52,813 nt of DNA from a virus (lineage: Duplodnaviria > Caudoviricetes): positions 1 to 52,813 of the IMG/VR virus record IMGVR_UViG_3300037502_004181. One strand, 5' to 3'. The position numbers and the translations under genes are program-made. A model generated the notes under the pieces. It had not been told where the DNA came from. It did no database searches and was given only the letters and a program-made list of their open reading frames with translations. Positions 1,926 through 10,262 of this stretch are shown here, one piece after another (the first letter of the stretch is position 1; each line of letters begins with the position of its first letter).

Positions 1926-2201
1926 TTAATTTTCAATCGATAGCGGATACCTAGCCTTTATCTCAGAAACTTTATCTCTCCATATCTTCTCCGCTTCCGG
2001 CGTGCCATCGTATTGCCACTCAAGAAAAAGAGGGTCTGATTCTTCCCTGTACGCCTTCTGCCTTTTTTCATAGTTTTGTGATAATTCAAAATCCCTTTGG
2101 CGTATCACCGACTCGATTTGTTCAGAATCCATTCCCAGAGATTTCATGTATTCTTCTGTAAAATCTGTGTGTGTTTTTCCTTTAAATATGTAACTAAACA
2201 T
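1926..2201 (-). CDS. Small phage protein, putative tail-fibre assembly/chaperone (91 aa from ATG 2201)
   Basis: GGAGG RBS before ATG 2201, which overlaps the RT stop; RQKAYREESDPLFLEWQYD...WRDKVSEIKARYP resembles small proteins found after phage tail fibres; function inferred. Confidence 0.55.
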   Translation of the reverse strand: MFSYIFKGKTHTDFTEEYMKSLGMDSEQIESVIRQRDFELSQNYEKRQKAYREESDPLFLEWQYDGTPEAEKIWRDKVSEIKARYPLSIEN

Positions 2202-3471
2202 CTGTTTTCCTCCTGAATGGCTCAGCAAAAAGAGCCTTTTTAAGGTTGTAGGTGCTGGCGTGACCCGCATGGCCAAGCCATGATTGAATGTTCTGATTTA
2301 TATCAGAGAGACTTATCTCGCCTTTAGCGAACTGAGACCGATACTTTTTAAGTTTTGTCTTAATTCGCTTGACGCTGCATTTTCTCAGCAACCTATGGCT
2401 CGAATAAATTCGATACCCGAGAAAGTCCAAGCTCCTGCCGTTACTCGTTGAGATGGGGAAAACCTGCGTCTTGCTGTTCGTTTTTAATCTCAGGTAAAGG
2501 TGCAGAAATTCCTCTATATCCTTTCTCCACTGGTGCAGCACAGCCTTGTCGTGGTGAATGATGGCAAAATCGTCCATGTAGCGGATGTAGTGTTTTGCGC
2601 CAAGTGCGTGCTTTGCATATCTATCAAGCTCGTGCAGATACACGTTTGCAAAAATCTGACTGGTAAGGTTCCCCAGCGGAATGCCCACGCCCATTGATTC
2701 GCAAGGGCTGTTATCAATGATGTAAAACAGCAGTTCAAGCGTTCTCTGGCATTGTATTTTTGCCGCAAGGATAGACTTCAATACCTGGTGGTCTATGCTC
2801 GAAAAGTAACGGCTAATATCCGCTTTTAACGCATACGCCTTGCCATGCTTTGACTCCACCTTCTTAATAAAATATTGAGCCCTGTCAGCGCCTTTGTGGG
2901 TGCCTTTTCCTCGTCTACATGCGTATGAGTCATAGATGTAGGTTTTGTCAAACAGCGGCTCGATAACATTGTATATAGCCCGATGGACAACTCTGTCCTT
3001 AAAGTGCGGGGCTGATATCAGACGGCGCTTCGGCTCGAATACGTAAAAATGGTGATAGGGTGACATTTTATACATACCCCACATCAGCTCGTTTTGTATT
3101 TCTATAATGTTCTCTTCCAGATTATTGAAGAAAACTAGCGTTGCGTTCGCCTTTGTTTTTCCTTTTCGGCATGAGTATGCCGCCGATAAAAGATTCTCAA
3201 AATCAAATATCTTCTCGAATGAGCAGCCCAGTGACGCATCAATGGGCTTTATATCTGTTCCGGCTATGGCCGAGGAGGCGGCATCCTTTTCATGATTGCA
3301 CTGACAGCATCCCTTGGGATGGTTGTTTCTGGCTACATCAAGAGCGGGGCGAAAACCGATGTTACTGTTCGAGTTCGACCGCGCATTGTTCAGATTGAGC
3401 GCGCCCAGCCCGGCGTTCGAGCCATTGTTCCAGTTGCCCCCGCGAAGCGGGAACCGGTTCCGCGTATTCAT
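2194..3471 (-). CDS. DGR reverse transcriptase (bRT-like); ORF includes the TR in frame at its 5' end
   Basis: APHFKDRVVHRA, ACRRGKGTH, LKADISRYFSSIDH, GIPLGNLTSQIFANVYL (DGR-type SQ motif), RYMDD, DFLGY; no intron maturase or endonuclease extension. Confidence 0.95.
   Translation of the reverse strand: MNTRNRFPLRGGNWNNGSNAGLGALNLNNARSNSNSNIGFRPALDVARNNHPKGCCQCNHEKDAASSAIAGTDIKPIDASLGCSFEKIFDFENLLSAAYSCRKGKTKANATLVFFNNLEENIIEIQNELMWGMYKMSPYHHFYVFEPKRRLISAPHFKDRVVHRAIYNVIEPLFDKTYIYDSYACRRGKGTHKGADRAQYFIKKVESKHGKAYALKADISRYFSSIDHQVLKSILAAKIQCQRTLELLFYIIDNSPCESMGVGIPLGNLTSQIFANVYLHELDRYAKHALGAKHYIRYMDDFAIIHHDKAVLHQWRKDIEEFLHLYLRLKTNSKTQVFPISTSNGRSLDFLGYRIYSSHRLLRKCSVKRIKTKLKKYRSQFAKGEISLSDINQNIQSWLGHAGHASTYNLKKALFAEPFRRKTDV
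3343..3459 (-). repeat. DGR template repeat (TR), 117 bp
   Basis: Aligns without gaps to 3897-4013; holds 11 AAC/AAT codons and 24 adenines on the minus strand. Confidence 0.95.
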
Positions 3472-3824
3472 AATGCCGTCCCCTGTTGCTTGGCATTAAC
3501 GGAGCGTATCCAGCCGCCTATCATTTTTCCAAGCTCAACCAGTTGGCCGACCCATATTTCGTATCTCTTGATGTCGATATACCGCAAGTCCTTGGCGAGC
3601 CTGACTCGCCGTTTCAATATGGCAAGCTCGATATCTAAATCGGTCAGGGTCGTCTTCTTGTGGTATCGCTTAAATGCCGTGATGATCAATCTTTGAAGTT
3701 GCAGCATTGAAAGCCTGATTTCCGCGCCTAAAACATGGCGCTCATGTTTTGGAAATTGCTTTATTGCTTGATAGCCGTACATCATCATTTCCCGGCATTT
3801 TTCTTCAATGATTAGCGTTGTCAA
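3468..3824 (-). CDS. avd: DGR accessory variability determinant (Avd, four-helix bundle)
   Basis: Basic ~118 aa helical protein with FPKHERHVLGAEIR, LDIELAILK and ELGKMIGGWI motifs, between target and TR; GGAGG then TTG at 3824. Confidence 0.9.
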   Translation of the reverse strand: MTTLIIEEKCREMMMYGYQAIKQFPKHERHVLGAEIRLSMLQLQRLIITAFKRYHKKTTLTDLDIELAILKRRVRLAKDLRYIDIKRYEIWVGQLVELGKMIGGWIRSVNAKQQGTAL

Positions 3825-3845
3825 CTTGCCTCCGCACAACTAAAG

Positions 3846-3863
3846 GGCGCACTACCGTGCGCC
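3846..3863 (-). promoter_or_regulatory. DGR target-recognition hairpin/cruciform downstream of VR
   Basis: GGCGCAC-GGTA-GTGCGCC: perfect 7-bp stem with a GRNA tetraloop, 21 nt after the target stop codon. Confidence 0.8.
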
Positions 3864-3884
3864 ATCCAAAGAATCAGTTAACAG

Positions 3885-5255
3885 TTACACAAAGAAAGCG
3901 GGGCGAAAACCGATGCTACTGTGCGAGAACGACCGCGCAAAGTTCAGAATGAGCGCGCCCAGCCCGGCGCCCGAGCCATCGTGCCAGCCGCCCCCGCGAC
4001 GCGGGAACCGGTCACCATAGTTTCTAGTGTATAGCACCCCTCCAACAGTCTGGTCTGATGCAGTCTCTAGCAGCAGCTGTCTGAGCAGTTCAACAGGGGT
4101 ATAACCGGCCGATTTTTGCAGAATCTTGAATTCGACAGAGTTGCTATATCCAGAGTTTATGTCGTCACCGACATTACCCATGCGATTTGTCACTGTTGAA
4201 TTGAGGATAGGTGAGCCGCCGGTAGTTGAAGTTGAATCGTAATATGCTGTGTGACGGTTCCATCCAGCCTCTGTTAATGATGGGTTGTTATCCAGCGTTG
4301 TCAGGATTTGGCCGTCATCCAATTTCATCTGGTCAATCCATTCCCAGACGTTGCCGACCAGGTCGCAAATCCCAAACTCTGTATGATCATGGCTCCATGT
4401 TGATGGCCCCTTGCCGGTGCCTGTTGCCCCATTTCCACTGGTGTCGCCAGGTAGTCCGTTATCGGCGCGGCGAGCGGTTTCCCACTTAGCCTCATGGCTG
4501 CGGCCATAGTTCGTATTACCGCGAGGCACAGTGCCATTAGCCAGAGACCAGAGCGCAATGGCGGCCCACTCGTGAATCGACATAAGATGCCAATTGTCAC
4601 CCTTTTGTGTACAAAGCTGTTTTGCAGCGTCGTAGTTAACTGAGGTTCGCGGCTGATTGCCGCCGATAACGGCAGAGCCGCCCGCCGCCGATGATGCCAG
4701 ATATTTGCCGACAAGGATTTCGCCACGAGGCGCTCCGTTTGTGATGAATGCAGGATGCGTTCCGGTGCCAAGATTCAATGCCGGAAGATTTAGATCTTCA
4801 ACGTTGAACCTTGGTATCACACACATGATGTTGGGATTTCCCTGGGCATCATATACGACAGTGTTTCTTCCACCTGAATTTTGTTCGATCGACTTTCGAT
4901 AGCCATCCGTTGCGATAATAGTTAAGTTGCTGACGTTCTGGTTATAGTCAGTCTCAAGTGTGTTCAGCGCATCATCATAGTCATTTATCAGTTCGGATGC
5001 CTGGTCTGCCAATTTCTTGGTATAACCTTGGACAGGAATGATAGAGTACCCTTGGCCTGATTGAGAATTGCTTTTGTAACTCGGATAAATTGATAGTGCC
5101 GAATCACTGGCAATATTCGTTATCTCATAGGTCAGCCCATCAGGGCCAACGAATGCATCACCTACCCGGCTGTTTGCCACCCACGCAGTGCCGCTTCCTG
5201 TTACTGTGGTGGAACCATTGGTTACCGTTACTGTGCCTGTTCTATACCATGCCAT
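3885..5255 (-). CDS. DGR target: tail fibre/receptor-binding protein with C-terminal CLec (FGE-sulfatase-like, Mtd-like) domain
   Basis: N-terminal MAWYRTGTVTVTNGS fibre anchor; HPAF, WHLMSIHEWAA, GICDLVGNVWEW and RGGGW...IGFRPA motifs; VR in the last ~42 codons; follows J. Confidence 0.9.
   Translation of the reverse strand: MAWYRTGTVTVTNGSTTVTGSGTAWVANSRVGDAFVGPDGLTYEITNIASDSALSIYPSYKSNSQSGQGYSIIPVQGYTKKLADQASELINDYDDALNTLETDYNQNVSNLTIIATDGYRKSIEQNSGGRNTVVYDAQGNPNIMCVIPRFNVEDLNLPALNLGTGTHPAFITNGAPRGEILVGKYLASSAAGGSAVIGGNQPRTSVNYDAAKQLCTQKGDNWHLMSIHEWAAIALWSLANGTVPRGNTNYGRSHEAKWETARRADNGLPGDTSGNGATGTGKGPSTWSHDHTEFGICDLVGNVWEWIDQMKLDDGQILTTLDNNPSLTEAGWNRHTAYYDSTSTTGGSPILNSTVTNRMGNVGDDINSGYSNSVEFKILQKSAGYTPVELLRQLLLETASDQTVGGVLYTRNYGDRFPRRGGGWHDGSGAGLGALILNFARSFSHSSIGFRPAFFV
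3897..4013 (-). repeat. DGR variable repeat (VR), followed by IMH-like divergent 3' end
   Basis: 102/117 identical to TR; after the shared GGTTTTCGCCCCGCT, VR continues TTCTTTGTGTAA and TR continues CTTGATGTAGCC. Confidence 0.95.
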
Positions 5256-5267
5256 TTTTAGCCTCTA

Positions 5268-8200
5268 TTAAGTATTTTCTGTGGCGATTAGTGATAACCG
5301 CTGAGTTTTAAATGGGACGCTACCCGCGTTATAGGTCGTCACGCGAGCGCGGTAATAACGTGTTGCTGTTGTTTGGTCTGAGTCGGTAAAAGTGGCGCTA
5401 CCCGATAGGTTTGATGAGCCGATTCGGTCTGTTCCTTCTTGCGAAATTGTCCACGAACCACCGCATAAAATGGTTTGTACGACTGACCATGTTTTACCTA
5501 AATCTAGTGAGCGCTCTAATACGACAGTGCCGCTGGTTGAGCCGCTAGAAGATGTACCTGTTTGGTTTAAAAAGAATGAGCCGTGGCATTGCAGCGATAC
5601 GGCGATAGTGATGACGCCGCCTAAACTGCCGAACGTGGTTTCGACTGCTGCCGTTGAGCTGAGCTGAGATGATGTAACGGCATTTTTGTAGTCGCCAGTG
5701 GTGATGGCGCCACCGAAATAGGCGCTGCCATCTACTTTGCGGTATGACGTGGCATTAGCTTCGGTGCAGTTACTGATATCGCCCACATCAGGCCCAAACC
5801 ATTCCAAGAATTGATTGCTGCTACCAAACCCAATACCAAAGACCTGCAGCGAACTGCCAATACGTTGGATAATGGTTTTGTTATGAAGTGTTCCAATAAC
5901 GGCATTATTCATGTAGACCATGCCGTTCTGCACCACGAATGGTGACGTAACTGTGGTTGTTCCTGTGGTTTGATTGAGAATTGCAAATCTGTCAGCTAAA
6001 ACGAAAAAGTTAGACTGAAGGCCTGCAGAGCCGTTCTCATAGCTTAGCCCAAACCCTGAAGCATAGTATTTGCCATCAGCAGTGATATTCATGCTGACTT
6101 TCCACATTGCTTCGATATTGCCTTCAAGGTCTGCCTGAGCCTGAGACACTTGCTGAATCGCTGTGGTATTGTTGCCTACCGAGGATTGCAGCGTCGTTAT
6201 GTCCTGAGCAAGAGCGCTATCCGCATCAGCTCTGGCCGTAGCCTCAGACTGAATTGCGGCAGCGTTGTCTCCTACCGAGGATTGCAGCGTTGTTATGTCT
6301 TGGGCAAGAGCGCTATCCGCATCAGCTCTGGCTGTAGCCTCAGATTGAATCGCGGCTGCATTAGTTGATACGCCAATATTGGCCGCATCTGCGGCAGCTT
6401 GTGCCGCAGCAGCTGAAGCCTGAACAGTCGTTATGTTTTGAGCTAATGATTCATCAGCTGTAGTCCGAGCAGTACTTTCCTGCTGAATTGCTGCTGAGTT
6501 GTTTTTTGACTCTGCTGATATGGTAGTAATTTGACGCGCAAGCGCTTCATCCTCTGTTGCCCTGGCCTCCTGCTCTACGCGGATCGCAGCCTTTGACTTC
6601 CATCCGGAAAGAACATCAGCAAGGCGGCCATCGCCAGTGTCTTCCACCGTCGCCTGAACTGTATTTATTTTCCTGCTCAATACACTATCAGCATTGGCTC
6701 TGGCCGTAGCCTCAGACTGAATTGCGGCTGAGTTGTCTCCGACAGACGTTTGCAGCGTTGTTATGTCTTGCGCTAACGCACTATCAGCATTGGCACGGGC
6801 CGTAGCCTCAGACTGAATTGCGGCAGCGTTGTCTCCTACCGAGGATTGCAGCGTTGTTATGTCTTGGGCAAGAGCGCTATCCGCATCAGCTCTGGCTGTA
6901 GCCTCAGATTGAATCGCGGCTGCATTAGTTGATACGCCAATATTGGCCGCATCTGCGGCAGCTTGTGCCGCAGCAGCTGAAGCCTGAACAGTCGTTATGT
7001 TTTGAGCTAATGATTCATCAGCTGTAGTCCGAGCAATACTTTCCTGCTGAATCGCGGCTGAGTTGTTTTTTGACTCTGCTGATATTGTAGTAATTTGACG
7101 CGCAAGCGCTTCATCCTCTGTTGCCCTGGCCTCCTGCTCTACGCGGATCGCCGCTTTTGACTTCCAACCAGCAAGAACATCAGCAAGGCGGCCATCTCCA
7201 GTGTCATCATCGCGATAGGCGGCGATCATGGTGTCAGTGCGTGAAGTGTTGGCTTCTAGCTTGCCGTCAATCAAATCAACAGAGTTCTGAACATCTGTCA
7301 TTTGCGCCGTGAGTGCAGCTACCGCCTCACCAATACTGGCGTAATCACCTACATACTCCCAATAGTTGGTATCTGTTGGCAGAGTTCCAGCAGGAATGTT
7401 GTCCTGCTTTGCCCGGTATATTGATATACCTGTTCCGTCGTCGTAGGTGACGAATTCGCCGCTGTTATATACCGTTGAGGCGCTCCACTCTCCTGCCCCA
7501 GAAATGTCAGCCAGCTGCTGGTTTATACTGTCAATGTTTGCCTGGATCTGCGGTATTTTGTCTATTTCAATGTTTATGGAATCAAGGTTTGACTCAATTC
7601 CAGGTATTTTTTCTACCTCTATATTTATAGAGTCAAGGTTTGATTCGATTCCTGGTATTTTTTCAATGGGGTCAAGCAGACTCTGGGCCAGTTCGCTTTC
7701 TGATATCTGCCCAGTAAGGTAGTCGAGTATTGTGCCTGCATCTGATGATGATGCGCCCTGTACATAATCAGACCAGGGGCCAATGTTTCCTGTTCTATCG
7801 ACTATCCTGGCCCTGAACCAGAAGGCAATACCTGCTGCCAAACCGGTTATCGTGTGGTTGTCGAGTGGGTAAGCATACTGCCCAAGCAGAGCCTCATTGG
7901 CGCCATTGTTGTCAGTTGCATAGTTGATCTCGGTATAAAGCGTATCCTCAGACCCAGGTTGAAACGCCCACTTTAGGCCAATGCCAAATACCAATGAAGT
8001 GGCATTTAGGCTGGCAAGCGCAGGCGGTGACCCTGTTTTTCCTGTAATATCAGTAAGAACTGATGTTGCCGGTTTGGAGGATATGTCAGCAGCATTAACC
8101 GCGGTGACCCTGGCAATGTATTGGCCGGTGTACACTCCCCGCACATCAACGCTTCTTGTACCTGTTCTAGGCAGACGGATCCAGTCGCCAGAGTCTTTCC

Positions 8201-10208
8201 TCCACTCAACATCGTATGCCACGGCGTCCTCGGCTGCATCCCACTCTATTGTCATTACAGTCACAGACATCGTTTGCTCAATCAGCGTTTTTTGGCTGAT
8301 AACAACGTTGGTCGGTGGAGCCTGCACATTTGGCGGAATAACAGAAATAGGCCTGATATCTATCTGGGCGCCGTCATCAATGGCCTGGTGCTTTCCGGGC
8401 ACGCTGATAACCGCATTTATCTCATACTCGTGTTCTTCACTTCTTTTTATTGAAAGCACTCTGAACTGCATTACAGCGAGCTCGTCGGCGTCTACCGCCC
8501 AAACTGACTGAGCCTGAGGCACTTCTGAATAGTCAGCATCAACGGTAACTTGCGGTCCATTAACGGCGGTGATAGTTCGCCATTCGGCCTTGCCTGATGG
8601 CAAGTTTACAATCAGCCGGTTACCTACCGCTGCGGATGAGGTTTTATCCAGAGTGACTACGCTTGCAGTAGCAGAGCGGATCCTGCCGCCGTTAATTGCG
8701 CCCTGCAGCATTTCGTCTGCGACATTGATAATGTTGCCAGGGCGCGGAATTTGACCGTCAAGACCAACTCTGAAAGTTACCGTTCTTGTTTCAAGTTGCT
8801 CTGATTTAAGGGCCCACAGTCCGGCGCGCTGGGCCTGCCCTTCACTGGTGCAACCTATGGCCTCAACATCAAGCTGTGAAATGCCAAGAGTCACAGCTGA
8901 GTTGTCGAATACAACGGCTGTATCGTCCTTGAATGACTGTTCTGGGTTGCTCCAGCGCACGCTGGCAACACTGTGGCGATCACGCAGTGCGGTACCCTTG
9001 TACTCGAATATCCCGTCTATCACGTTGGCATTGGTGTATGTGTAGATTGGGTCTTCCGGCATGTCTGCCGTTACCATCATCTGCGAACCATCCCAGAAGC
9101 TGTTGCCGTGGAATATGCTCGTCAGTTGGTTTAGCAGCTGATAGGCCTGCCCCTGGTTCTGTATATACACGTTGCAGGTATAGCGCGGCTCTGTGCCTCC
9201 CTTGCCATCATCTACCATCACATCGCAATACTGGGCAATCTGGTACAGCTTCCACTTATTGACCATATTGGTATTGATGCGATTGCCAAGGCCAAAGCGC
9301 TTGTGAAGAACCAAGTCATACCAAACCCAAGCCGGGTTATTGGTGTACGCCTCTTTAAATGTTCCGTCCCAAACTCCGTTTGATGTTCCTGGGCCACTGG
9401 TTGCATAGGTTCTGGTCAGAGTATCGTAGTTAGCCGGCACCTTGATTATTCGCCCGCGGCAAAGCGCCGAGAACTTAGGAATATTGGAGAACTGCTCGGA
9501 ATCGTACTCAACTGCGATAAGTGCGGTGTGCGGGTATCTCAGCTTGGCATCAACCACCTCAGTGATTGAGTCAATTACCATCTTATCTTCTATCTTGAGT
9601 GATTCAGCGTTTGCCGTCAGCCTGCGCACTCTCACCTGCCAGCTGCTACCCTCTTGCGGCAAGTCAATTCTGTGGCTGCGCTCGTAACTCGACCCTGTTT
9701 TTCCATCAACGGCAGTATTGAGTACTTCAATAAAGCTGCCGCCATCGGTCGATACGTCAATGGCGTAGGCAATGCGATAGCCAACCAGGTCACCGTTATC
9801 CTTTTGTTCCAGAAGCCGTGGCCAGGCAAAGCGGATCCTGACAGCCGACAGCTGCGGATTGGTGAACTGGCGCACGAACGGGGTTCCGTAGCGCAGTTCT
9901 ACCCCAACAGACACCTCGTTGTTGGTTTCCGGGTACCCCTGAATATAGGTTTGATCAACAGTACCTGGGCGAAAGTCCACCTTAACGCCGTCAATATTCT
10001 CACCGCCGCCAGTGCTGCGAACCGGGGTGCCATCAAGCTTCACTGAGTTGTAGCCGTTTACCAGCCCTTCTATTTCGCCTTCACTGATGGCATATAGCAG
10101 TTTTGCGGTGGCGACAGAACGCAGCGTGTCAGGTGCTGTGTACGGCGTCTGAGAACCAGATCCACCAGATTTAGCGCCTTTTATTGGCTGCGCAGATTGC
10201 TGCATCAT
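5268..10208 (-). CDS. Tail tip / central fibre protein (lambda J-like)
   Basis: AISEGEIEG, LRYPHTAL, WDGTFKEAYTNNPAW, EPRYTCN, GCTSEGQAQRAGLW; Fn3-like region, coiled-coil repeats. Confidence 0.93.
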   Translation of the reverse strand: MMQQSAQPIKGAKSGGSGSQTPYTAPDTLRSVATAKLLYAISEGEIEGLVNGYNSVKLDGTPVRSTGGGENIDGVKVDFRPGTVDQTYIQGYPETNNEVSVGVELRYGTPFVRQFTNPQLSAVRIRFAWPRLLEQKDNGDLVGYRIAYAIDVSTDGGSFIEVLNTAVDGKTGSSYERSHRIDLPQEGSSWQVRVRRLTANAESLKIEDKMVIDSITEVVDAKLRYPHTALIAVEYDSEQFSNIPKFSALCRGRIIKVPANYDTLTRTYATSGPGTSNGVWDGTFKEAYTNNPAWVWYDLVLHKRFGLGNRINTNMVNKWKLYQIAQYCDVMVDDGKGGTEPRYTCNVYIQNQGQAYQLLNQLTSIFHGNSFWDGSQMMVTADMPEDPIYTYTNANVIDGIFEYKGTALRDRHSVASVRWSNPEQSFKDDTAVVFDNSAVTLGISQLDVEAIGCTSEGQAQRAGLWALKSEQLETRTVTFRVGLDGQIPRPGNIINVADEMLQGAINGGRIRSATASVVTLDKTSSAAVGNRLIVNLPSGKAEWRTITAVNGPQVTVDADYSEVPQAQSVWAVDADELAVMQFRVLSIKRSEEHEYEINAVISVPGKHQAIDDGAQIDIRPISVIPPNVQAPPTNVVISQKTLIEQTMSVTVMTIEWDAAEDAVAYDVEWRKDSGDWIRLPRTGTRSVDVRGVYTGQYIARVTAVNAADISSKPATSVLTDITGKTGSPPALASLNATSLVFGIGLKWAFQPGSEDTLYTEINYATDNNGANEALLGQYAYPLDNHTITGLAAGIAFWFRARIVDRTGNIGPWSDYVQGASSSDAGTILDYLTGQISESELAQSLLDPIEKIPGIESNLDSINIEVEKIPGIESNLDSINIEIDKIPQIQANIDSINQQLADISGAGEWSASTVYNSGEFVTYDDGTGISIYRAKQDNIPAGTLPTDTNYWEYVGDYASIGEAVAALTAQMTDVQNSVDLIDGKLEANTSRTDTMIAAYRDDDTGDGRLADVLAGWKSKAAIRVEQEARATEDEALARQITTISAESKNNSAAIQQESIARTTADESLAQNITTVQASAAAAQAAADAANIGVSTNAAAIQSEATARADADSALAQDITTLQSSVGDNAAAIQSEATARANADSALAQDITTLQTSVGDNSAAIQSEATARANADSVLSRKINTVQATVEDTGDGRLADVLSGWKSKAAIRVEQEARATEDEALARQITTISAESKNNSAAIQQESTARTTADESLAQNITTVQASAAAAQAAADAANIGVSTNAAAIQSEATARADADSALAQDITTLQSSVGDNAAAIQSEATARADADSALAQDITTLQSSVGNNTTAIQQVSQAQADLEGNIEAMWKVSMNITADGKYYASGFGLSYENGSAGLQSNFFVLADRFAILNQTTGTTTVTSPFVVQNGMVYMNNAVIGTLHNKTIIQRIGSSLQVFGIGFGSSNQFLEWFGPDVGDISNCTEANATSYRKVDGSAYFGGAITTGDYKNAVTSSQLSSTAAVETTFGSLGGVITIAVSLQCHGSFFLNQTGTSSSGSTSGTVVLERSLDLGKTWSVVQTILCGGSWTISQEGTDRIGSSNLSGSATFTDSDQTTATRYYRARVTTYNAGSVPFKTQRLSLIATENT
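6172..7205 (-). repeat. 564-bp-period internal duplication in J with nested 96-bp (32 aa) units
   Basis: DTGDGRLADVL(A/S)GWKSKAAIRVEQE... occurs twice 188 aa apart; NAAAIQSEATARADADSALAQDITTLQSSVGD unit recurs. Confidence 0.9.
7512..7665 (-). repeat. Three 51-bp (17 aa) tandem repeats in J
   Basis: EKIPGIESNLDSINIEV / EKIPGIESNLDSINIEI / DKIPQIQANIDSINQQL; ggtatttt at 7552, 7603 and 7654. Confidence 0.85.
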
Positions 10209-10234
10209 GGGGTAACGTCTCCCGACATTTAGGT

Positions 10235-10262
10235 ACAAAAAAACCGCTTTCGCGGCCGTTGT
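10235..10262 (-). terminator. Intrinsic terminator, 28-bp exact repeat copy 1
   Basis: acaaaaaaaccgctttcgcggccgttgt, identical to 16034-16061; minus strand CCGC-GAAA-GCGG then T7. Confidence 0.7.

Follow-up and report, generated by a model that had tools for sequence, protein, structure and literature searches.

A phage diversity-generating retroelement whose template repeat and spacer are probably translated as the beginning of its reverse transcriptase

Work on diversity-generating retroelements (DGRs) treats the template repeat (TR) and the spacer that follows it as non-coding RNA, and in the model element of phage BPP-1 both are intergenic. The DGR described here lies on the minus strand in the left part of the IMG/VR record IMGVR_UViG_3300037502_004181, a virus of the Caudoviricetes (positions 1 to 52,813, the whole of which is called the window below), and it does not have this classical layout, in which TR and spacer are intergenic and the reverse transcriptase (RT) has its own start before its N-terminal helix. 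Its RT gene has lost, or never had, a translation start of its own. Comparison with relatives makes it likely that the RT is translated from an ATG at 3471, probably by re-initiation after the accessory variability determinant gene (avd), and that translation runs through the TR and the spacer, the same RNA serving as the template and as the element that RT and Avd bind. The fused arrangement, with RT translation coupled to avd, appears to have been kept across a large group of marine phages.

One frame through template, spacer and reverse transcriptase

The features of the frame had been described in a sequence-only reading of the window, and each of them bears out. The stop codon of avd shares bases with an ATG: on the minus strand the TGA occupies 3470-3468 and the ATG 3471-3469, within TTATGA at 3473-3468, so that the overlap itself is the ATGA at 3468..3471. 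This ATG is the only canonical start of the RT frame and opens a single open reading frame (ORF) of 425 codons, 2194..3471, which passes through the TR (3343..3458), the spacer (3225..3344) and the RT core (2194..3219) and ends at 2194. Codons 1-4 are a leader, codons 5-43 the TR, codons 44-84 the spacer and codons 85-425 the core, the last of which is delimited by AlphaFold2 confidence and by the start points of homologs and runs from the conserved N-terminal helix onward. No ATG, GTG or TTG is in frame between codon 1 and codon 130 (3084), the Met of the sequence 'LMWG', which lies 45 codons inside the conserved RT and past the start of the fold; within the first 135 codons, the only other such codon is 133. 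The frame in which the RT ORF reads the TR is also the frame in which the target gene reads its variable repeat (VR). Near-cognate codons do occur in frame, namely CTG at 3408, 3393 and 3231, ATC at 3360, ATA at 3267, 3252 and 3210, and ATT at 3243. Stops in the spacer, summed over 14 relatives, number 11 and 62 in the other two frames and 0 in the RT frame. The long RT ORF is also called by GenBank or RefSeq for phages VP58.5 and ACA2 and for Moritella and Photobacterium plasmids, and an RT of the same extent is annotated in VP58.5 (425 amino acids, aa) and ACA2 (421 aa).

The conservation of this frame was followed in a protein set made of the best 120 of 3785 matches, each a 90% cluster, with identities from 99 down to 54%. 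TR peptide, spacer peptide and RT stand in a single ORF of 412-519 aa in 115 of these 120 clusters (108 recognized by pattern and 7 by eye), and in two more the ORF begins within the TR without leaving the frame. That leaves three clusters: P0109, with a frameshift in its leader; P0111, which is the error-ridden record of phage VHML; and P0120, from a truncated contig. Most spacer peptides are 41 aa long, with variants of 37, 39, 42, 43, 44 and 46 aa, meaning that length changes stayed in frame. All comparisons of position use as their anchor the first conserved RT helix, residue F85 of the window protein, and a Met within -12..+3 of the anchor is present in only 8 of the 108 pattern-matched clusters. 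The clade comes from Vibrio, Shewanella, Pseudoalteromonas, Alteromonas, Moritella, Photobacterium, Aeromonas and Marinomonas, and includes phages, plasmids and metagenomes. Since gene callers favour long ORFs, the test of the frame was repeated at the DNA level, where each of the 13 lineages whose cores are 65% or more identical has no fewer than 85 open codons upstream of the anchor. The sole DNA-level exception is the VHML record, in which an N and several breaks of the frame interrupt avd and RT; these are likely sequencing errors or a matter of record quality rather than biology, the near-identical VP58.5 being intact. The ATGA overlap is present in all 14 aligned clade sequences, though the adjacent avd codons vary. 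Stops between TR and RT in homologs, which the sequence-only reading had named as grounds against its proposal, are distributed as that proposal predicts: stops or frame changes are confined to more distant relatives in which the RT has an ATG of its own at the fold, such as phiWae15.

At L010:313-565, an IMG/VR contig, an adenine-mutagenised VR-like sequence stands at the TR position, between avd and spacer. It has 22 differences from the window leader in 252 nucleotides (nt), 16 of them at TR adenines, and its flanks are near-identical to the window, with 6 differences over 250 nt upstream and 16 over 1000 nt downstream. Either the TR has been overwritten or VR reads have been swapped into it by assembly; the RT frame is open either way. 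Similar 'TR' peptides that are not Asn-rich are seen in proteins P0092, P0098, P0133 and P0054.

The usual place at which DGR reverse transcriptases start was taken from 327 loci gathered from IMG/VR, GTDB genomes, metagenomes, and phage and plasmid records. An A-biased TR lies 60-330 nt upstream of the anchor in 201 of them, which form 112 clusters, or 111 without the VHML record; the metagenome scan gave at least one clade member (L239), and scans with P0061 and P0104 contributed few clade loci. A canonical start falls within -12..+3 codons of the anchor in 101 of the 111 clusters, typically at -1, -2, -7 or -8, and 108 of the 150 best representatives from a library of 1.84 billion proteins begin at most 15 residues before it. 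Outside the clade the TR frame is in phase with the RT in 39 of 100 clusters, about the one third given by chance; it is open through to the RT in 9 of the 100, and in 3 there is also a start codon upstream of the TR. Inside the clade, a fused frame with a start upstream of the TR is found in 11 of 11 clusters. Grouped by their starts, 7 of the 10 clusters that lack a proximal start have the fused frame, and 7 of the 101 with a proximal start are fused with an upstream start. Among sister lineages with an ATG at -1, the frame is closed or out of phase in phiWae15 and L027, and open in phiARM81mr and an Aeromonas caviae locus. The frame therefore varies freely where the RT has its own start and is fixed where it has none.

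In phiWae15 (L004:2812-3093), L031/L088 and L259, all unfused, the TR is read in the VR frame by an ORF of its own, which begins 4-16 nt ahead of the TR and ends 0-5 nt from the start of the RT, with an ATGA or TGATG overlap or a 2-nt gap. From their sequences these few cases look like a coupled chain of avd, TR-ORF and RT. In L033 (2768-2882), L034, L035 and L038, with about 45% RT identity, the RT frame is free of ATG, GTG and TTG for 37 codons upstream and 40 codons downstream of the N-terminus, and an ATT at -12 lies 4 nt after a GGTGA motif, so that a non-canonical start is possible. Finally, about a dozen of the 150 representatives, which belong to other lineages (36-48% identity), have gene calls in which the RT carries a fused, TR-like peptide at its N-terminus, four of them without a Met near the fold; examples are P0121, P0124, P0131, P0135, P0142, P0144, P0176, P0177, P0243 and P0262. 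Fused TR-RT frames may thus have arisen more than once.

Selection at the codon level was measured in 14 clade lineages, whose alignment is ungapped in the spacer. The Nei-Gojobori (NG86) ratio of nonsynonymous to synonymous differences (pN/pS) is 0.11 in the TR, 0.22 in the RT core and 0.46 in the spacer when read in the RT frame (bootstrap 0.34-0.60), and the spacer shifted by +1 or +2 gives 1.02 and 0.90. Maximum likelihood with a codon model and a fixed tree puts the omega of the spacer at 0.417, with lnL -1217.93 compared to -1235.12 when omega is set to 1, a strong rejection of omega = 1 (2dlnL = 34.4, one degree of freedom). The low value in the TR is expected anyway, since the scaffold of the target has its master copy there. 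Synonymous diversity is 0.50 in the spacer against 0.86 in the core, which fits a second, RNA-level constraint on the spacer. The variable sites of the spacer number 12, 15 and 22 at the three codon positions in 10 sequences, a weak third-position excess.

One could consider the open frame an accident of descent and gene calling, in which a TR that is open by construction happens to be in phase with the RT across a short, stop-free spacer. TRs rich in AAY codons are indeed open in the VR frame by design, 9 of the 100 outside clusters are open from TR into RT (6 of them without an upstream start), and gene callers do extend ORFs, as seen in 24 of 150 representatives with extensions of more than 60 aa. 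An accident, however, would have to survive, in 115 of 120 clusters, a protein divergence of 46%, with length changes in frame only, omega significantly below 1 and an invariant ATGA; the proximal start of 101 of 111 other clusters is absent, and there are 11 and 62 stops in the other frames and none in this one. The accidental origin of the frame is therefore very improbable.

A folded RNA inside the coding sequence

The spacer also has the marks of a structured RNA. The Rfam model RF02921 (RT-14) matches it by cmscan at 37.4 bits (E ~1e-3, model positions 1-144), which is below the gathering threshold of 48.1, and the relatives L172 and L173 score 44.7 and 47.9, both below it as well. The whole model aligns exactly to the gap between TR and RT in the window, and the window spacer and RT-14 have in common the conserved bases GCCAGA, CAGUGC and AAAGG and three hairpins. 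They differ in the terminal hairpin, which in the window lacks the 19-nt insert of the model, and in their setting, since RT-14-type motifs are found in intergenic regions and the RNA of the window is coding. The motifs RT-1 to RT-19 (Weinberg et al. 2017) adjoin RT genes, and RT-10 is the spacer between TR and brt of BPP-1, according to PMC5737381.

The RT-14 structure, as taken from the cmscan alignment of the window itself, was put on the ungapped alignment of 14 clade spacers. Of all paired cells, 89% hold a pair, and 14 of the 30 pairs change on both sides. None of 500 shuffles comes up to these values, and controls slid along the alignment pair at 28-42%. Three minus-strand helices are supported. 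Helix 1 (3304..3326, columns 21-30 with 35-43) has 9 pairs, 6 double-sided changes and 92% pairing; helix 2 (3261..3272, columns 75-78 with 83-86) has 4 pairs, all of them formed throughout (100%), and its pair 76-85 is A-U in 7 sequences and G-C in the other 7; helix 3 (3225..3248, columns 99-108 with 113-122, loop UGCG) has 10 pairs and 7 double-sided changes. The outer helix is weak, with 73% pairing and no double changes. The 3' arm of helix 3 spans codons -8 to -2, the usual position of the RT start in other DGRs, and its covering of these codons may be the reason that the clade has no proximal start.

The way in which the helices sit on the codons ties the two layers together. In each of the three supported helices, the third codon positions of one arm face those of the other (28-37, 76-85, 100-121, 103-118 and 106-115), and this register means that compensatory changes can be largely silent. 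By the evidence of the alignment, RNA structure and reading frame in the spacer are fitted to each other, and the third-to-third register is a compact example of such a mutual fit. The peptide bears traces of the RNA as well: Ala-Arg, Cys-Gln-Cys, Glu-Lys-Asp and Asp-Ala-Ser sit on RT-14-conserved bases or on the top of helix 3, and the residues that flank Asp-Ala-Ser change in step with the helix. The 'CQC' and 'EKD' peptide motifs, which coincide with the conserved CAGUGC and AAAGG bases, are best read as probable by-products of RNA conservation.

The position of the helices also bears on a different way of making the RT, by internal initiation at a non-canonical codon near the fold (ATT 3243, CTG 3231, or ATA at 3252 or 3267). 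This would give an RT of about 345-357 aa, and the upstream frame would be tolerated or of marginal use. In-frame near-cognate codons exist; where the window has ATA 3267, 13 of 14 lineages have ATH or ATG; and in L033-35 and L038 an RT frame without a canonical start has an ATT after the GGTGA motif. A start at CTG or ATT near 3230-3245, which the sequence-only reading had set against its own proposal, finds no backing in the alignment, as neither codon is conserved: 5 of 14 lineages have GTT, CTC, GCT, GTC or ACT in place of the ATT, and the codon at the CTG position stands for Leu, Ile, Met, Gly, Val, Ala or Ser, depending on the lineage. The 14-lineage alignment shows no conserved purine-rich motif at 5-12 nt upstream of the candidates, and the candidate codons are inside helices 2 and 3. 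Internal initiation would moreover leave unexplained the 84 open codons in 115 of 120 clusters, the in-frame insertions and deletions, and an omega below 1 in that frame only. For these reasons it is regarded as improbable, and translation from 3471 is preferred.

The protein that would result from a start at 3471 carries a long tail. The AlphaFold2 model, built with 72 homologs, has a mean predicted local distance difference test (pLDDT) score of 81.7, with values below 50 for residues 1-71 and confident values from about residue 75-84 onward; the N-terminal tail is thus predicted to be disordered. In the sequence-only reading the RT was given an Asn-rich TR peptide together with a 'CCQC' linker. 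Both are encoded in frame, and that part of the claim stands; 'CCQC' is best read as a by-product of RNA conservation. The same reading held that the extension may be regulatory, and nothing in the analysis points to such a role for the peptide. A metal-binding role for 'CCQC' was weighed and set aside: its Cys codons are on RT-14-conserved bases, one Cys varies (G, V, Y, S, R or A), and pLDDT is below 50. The AlphaFold2 model and the 14-lineage alignment give no evidence of a folded or metal-binding extension.

Message and template on one RNA

The following scheme would account for the arrangement. The avd, TR, spacer and RT sequences would be made as one RNA, and ribosomes ending avd at the UGA would restart at the overlapping AUG of the AUGA. 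They would then read the TR in the VR frame, pass through the folded spacer of about 120 nt and continue into the RT core. The product would be a 425-aa RT with a probably unstructured N-terminal tail of about 75-84 residues, and this full-length form would presumably be the active RT. The same stretch of RNA would be the template of the DGR and, by analogy with the BPP-1 spacer, the RNA that RT and Avd bind and on which priming takes place. Three layers of constraint would then meet in it: the target scaffold through the TR, the RNA structure of the spacer, and an open frame under weak selection. Passage of ribosomes and binding of RT-Avd on one RNA should be mutually exclusive, which would allow feedback or loading in cis, and it is a reasonable inference, made already in the sequence-only reading, that translation and template use compete or are coupled in cis.

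Contigs from RNA libraries bridge the junctions in question, one joining avd to TR (X12, 3363-3643) and another joining TR, spacer and RT (X7, 3150-3405); neither the strand nor the ends of a transcript can be read from such contigs, and they may stem from carried-over DNA, so they speak neither for nor against translation. X12 also has a 238-nt contig (depth 10.4) that joins 2217-2280 to 3186-3356, with three other letters between, and so skips 905 nt of the RT. This contig could be a chimera or a deleted copy.

Of course, several points weigh against translation of the RT from 3471. The support from conservation, selection and RNA data is comparative only. The protein counts depend on gene callers, which have a preference for long ORFs, and full-length matches score higher. 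RNA-level constraint on the spacer could distort omega; the shifted-frame controls argue otherwise, but they are not a full model. Folded as a single sequence, the spacer of the window has a minimum free energy no more stable than that of its shuffles (z = 0.03). The tail is predicted to be disordered and so offers no structural ground for being there. The ATG is preceded, at the long spacing of 10-11 nt, by a Shine-Dalgarno-like AGG, which is within the avd coding sequence. Lastly, ATA 3267, ATA 3252, ATT 3243 and CTG 3231 are possible additional starts, and the L033 group seems to use an ATT.

The disordered tail also invites the thought that what matters is the passage of the ribosome. In such a scheme the leader would be translated only to open, clear or protect the TR-spacer RNA, the tail would be removed or the fused protein would be inactive, and the little active RT needed would be made in some other way. 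The predicted disorder agrees with this, and the TR-ORFs that end 0-5 nt from the RT start in phiWae15, L031/L088 and L259 suggest that delivery of the ribosome counts for more than the peptide. In the clade, however, there is no stop, so ribosomes that enter at 3471 must make the fused protein, and no processing site is evident. This scheme is a variant of translation from 3471 through the spacer, inseparable from it by sequence data, and is judged to be highly doubtful, if slightly less so than an accidental frame.

A bolder proposal is that translation through the template is integral to the working of the DGR. The ribosome would unwind TR and spacer, the RNA would refold behind it, and the nascent RT, together with Avd produced shortly before from that message, would capture the same molecule, so that the enzyme is loaded in cis. 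Loaded RT-Avd would then block further ribosomes, giving about one enzyme per template RNA, and the unfused TR-ORFs of phiWae15, L031/L088 and L259 would be the same device in two pieces. In a still bolder sub-case, the Asn-rich copy of the variable loop of the target that is carried on the RT would have a binding role of its own. Cis-loading of this kind is put forward as a conjecture, which we think rather unlikely, though less so than internal initiation.

A large natural clade of at least 115 protein clusters has the template and the presumed RT- and Avd-binding RNA inside the RT coding sequence. It offers a system for asking how a retroelement splits one RNA between message and template, and whether the RT loads in cis. 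There are practical consequences as well. Elements of this clade will be mis-annotated by any DGR finder that expects the TR to be intergenic or cuts the RT back to the nearest internal Met, and reconstituted DGR tools made from it would need the leader in frame.

The locus and its relation to known systems

The element is a complete DGR at the end of the phage tail module, and all its parts are on the minus strand. A tail-fibre ORF of 1656 aa (5268-10238) is followed just downstream by the target gene (3885..5255), a candidate receptor-binding protein of 456 aa with an FGE-sulfatase/C-type-lectin-like C-terminus (Pfam FGE-sulfatase, E 4.7e-08), the counterpart of which in ACA2 is labelled 'antireceptor' in the annotation. 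The VR (3897..4012) forms the 3' end of the target gene, whose stop lies 12 nt past the VR end. It is a direct repeat (D1) 88% identical to the TR, with 14 mismatches over 116 nt, 13 of which are at TR adenines; the TR holds 23 A. A GC-rich hairpin at 3846..3863, 33 nt downstream of the VR, with a 7-bp stem and the loop GGTA, is a candidate target-recognition element. Hairpins of phage DGRs, including that of VHML, are described as having stems of 7-10 bp, a 5'-GRNA loop and a distance of 4-34 bp (PMC3240598), and the window hairpin agrees with this description in stem, loop and distance. The longest ORF of avd is 3468..3839 (Pfam bAvd, E 4.5e-31); avd of VP58.5 is annotated with a shorter start. 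The RT matches Pfam RVT_1 at residues 148-355 (E 1.1e-19), and its translation contains the stretch LGNLTSQ, which we take to be a DGR signature. RT homologs from public collections adjoin A-biased TR/VR pairs in 225 loci, and by comparison of contigs the number of TR/VR mismatches differs (10-16) among those with 99-100% identical RT, a spread compatible with active diversification. With an RT, an A-biased TR/VR pair, avd and the GC hairpin all present, the element is a bona fide DGR, and its order of target-VR, avd, TR, spacer and RT is that of the VHML/VP58.5 type of phage DGR.

Beyond the RT, a 116-aa ORF (1926-2276, minus strand) shares about 80 nt with the 3' end of the RT and is the counterpart of VP58.5 gp21 and VHML ORF38. 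ACA1 gp45, at the same position, is counted as part of the DGR module by the authors of the ACA1 paper, as its text has it. Further on, a stretch at about 1745-1810 on the minus strand resembles the 3' part of a tRNA, with an anticodon-loop-like segment, a long variable arm, a T arm and ACCA. It sits between a host dGTPase-like gene (1-1335) and the phage genes, a setting that would be in keeping with a prophage attachment site. At 1500-2000 no tRNA is called by ARAGORN, so the stretch is at most a tRNA fragment.

The prototype DGR, that of BPP-1 (mtd-avd-TR-spacer-brt), is like the element of the window in its gene order, with avd just before the TR, in its A-specific TR/VR differences, in the GC hairpin with a GRNA loop after the VR, and in the structured spacer RNA between TR and RT. 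It differs in the frame. In BPP-1 the VR frame of the TR does not have the phase of brt, and it runs into a stop some 36 nt short of the brt ATG. The brt gene has its own ATG after a spacer of 144 nt, whereas the spacer of the window is 120 nt long, abuts the RT fold and is inside the RT ORF.

A coupling of translation and RNA binding is familiar from another class of retroelement. The protein of a group II intron binds its own mRNA at domain IVa, where the high-affinity RNA site of the RT overlaps its own translation signals and links ribonucleoprotein assembly and translation in cis. That site covers the ribosome-binding site and not 80 codons of the ORF, and the likeness would be a mechanistic analogy only.

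In the DGR literature, the TR is described as intergenic 'in most cases' (PMC8144416). Among the named relatives are the Pseudoalteromonas phages ACA1 and ACA2, whose avd-TR-RT segment has about 72% nt identity to that of the window; they share the ATGA overlap, and the TR is part of their 421-aa RT. The paper on them (2023) remarks on the TR-RT fusion in one sentence, which rests on annotation (PMC10612066). Its mass spectrometry is of virions, and comparative, selection and RNA-structure analysis and protein evidence for the RT were not found in its accessible text. Apart from that sentence, a translated TR was treated nowhere in the accessible text of the papers searched; supplementary tables (e.g., Table S1 of PMC5758913) may list TR/RT overlaps. 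The same body of text gave no trace of clade-wide conservation, a missing proximal start, codon selection in the spacer or a covarying RT-14-like RNA inside an ORF.

The nearest named relatives are VP58.5 and VHML, Vibrio phages of the genus Vhmlvirus, with 98.3% and 93.6% nt identity to positions 2150-3900 of the window. The VHML record, from 2002 (L002, NC_004456.1 26760-31618), leaves avd unannotated and gives the RT as an internal piece of 303 aa. In VP58.5, the RefSeq RT of 425 aa begins at the avd stop.

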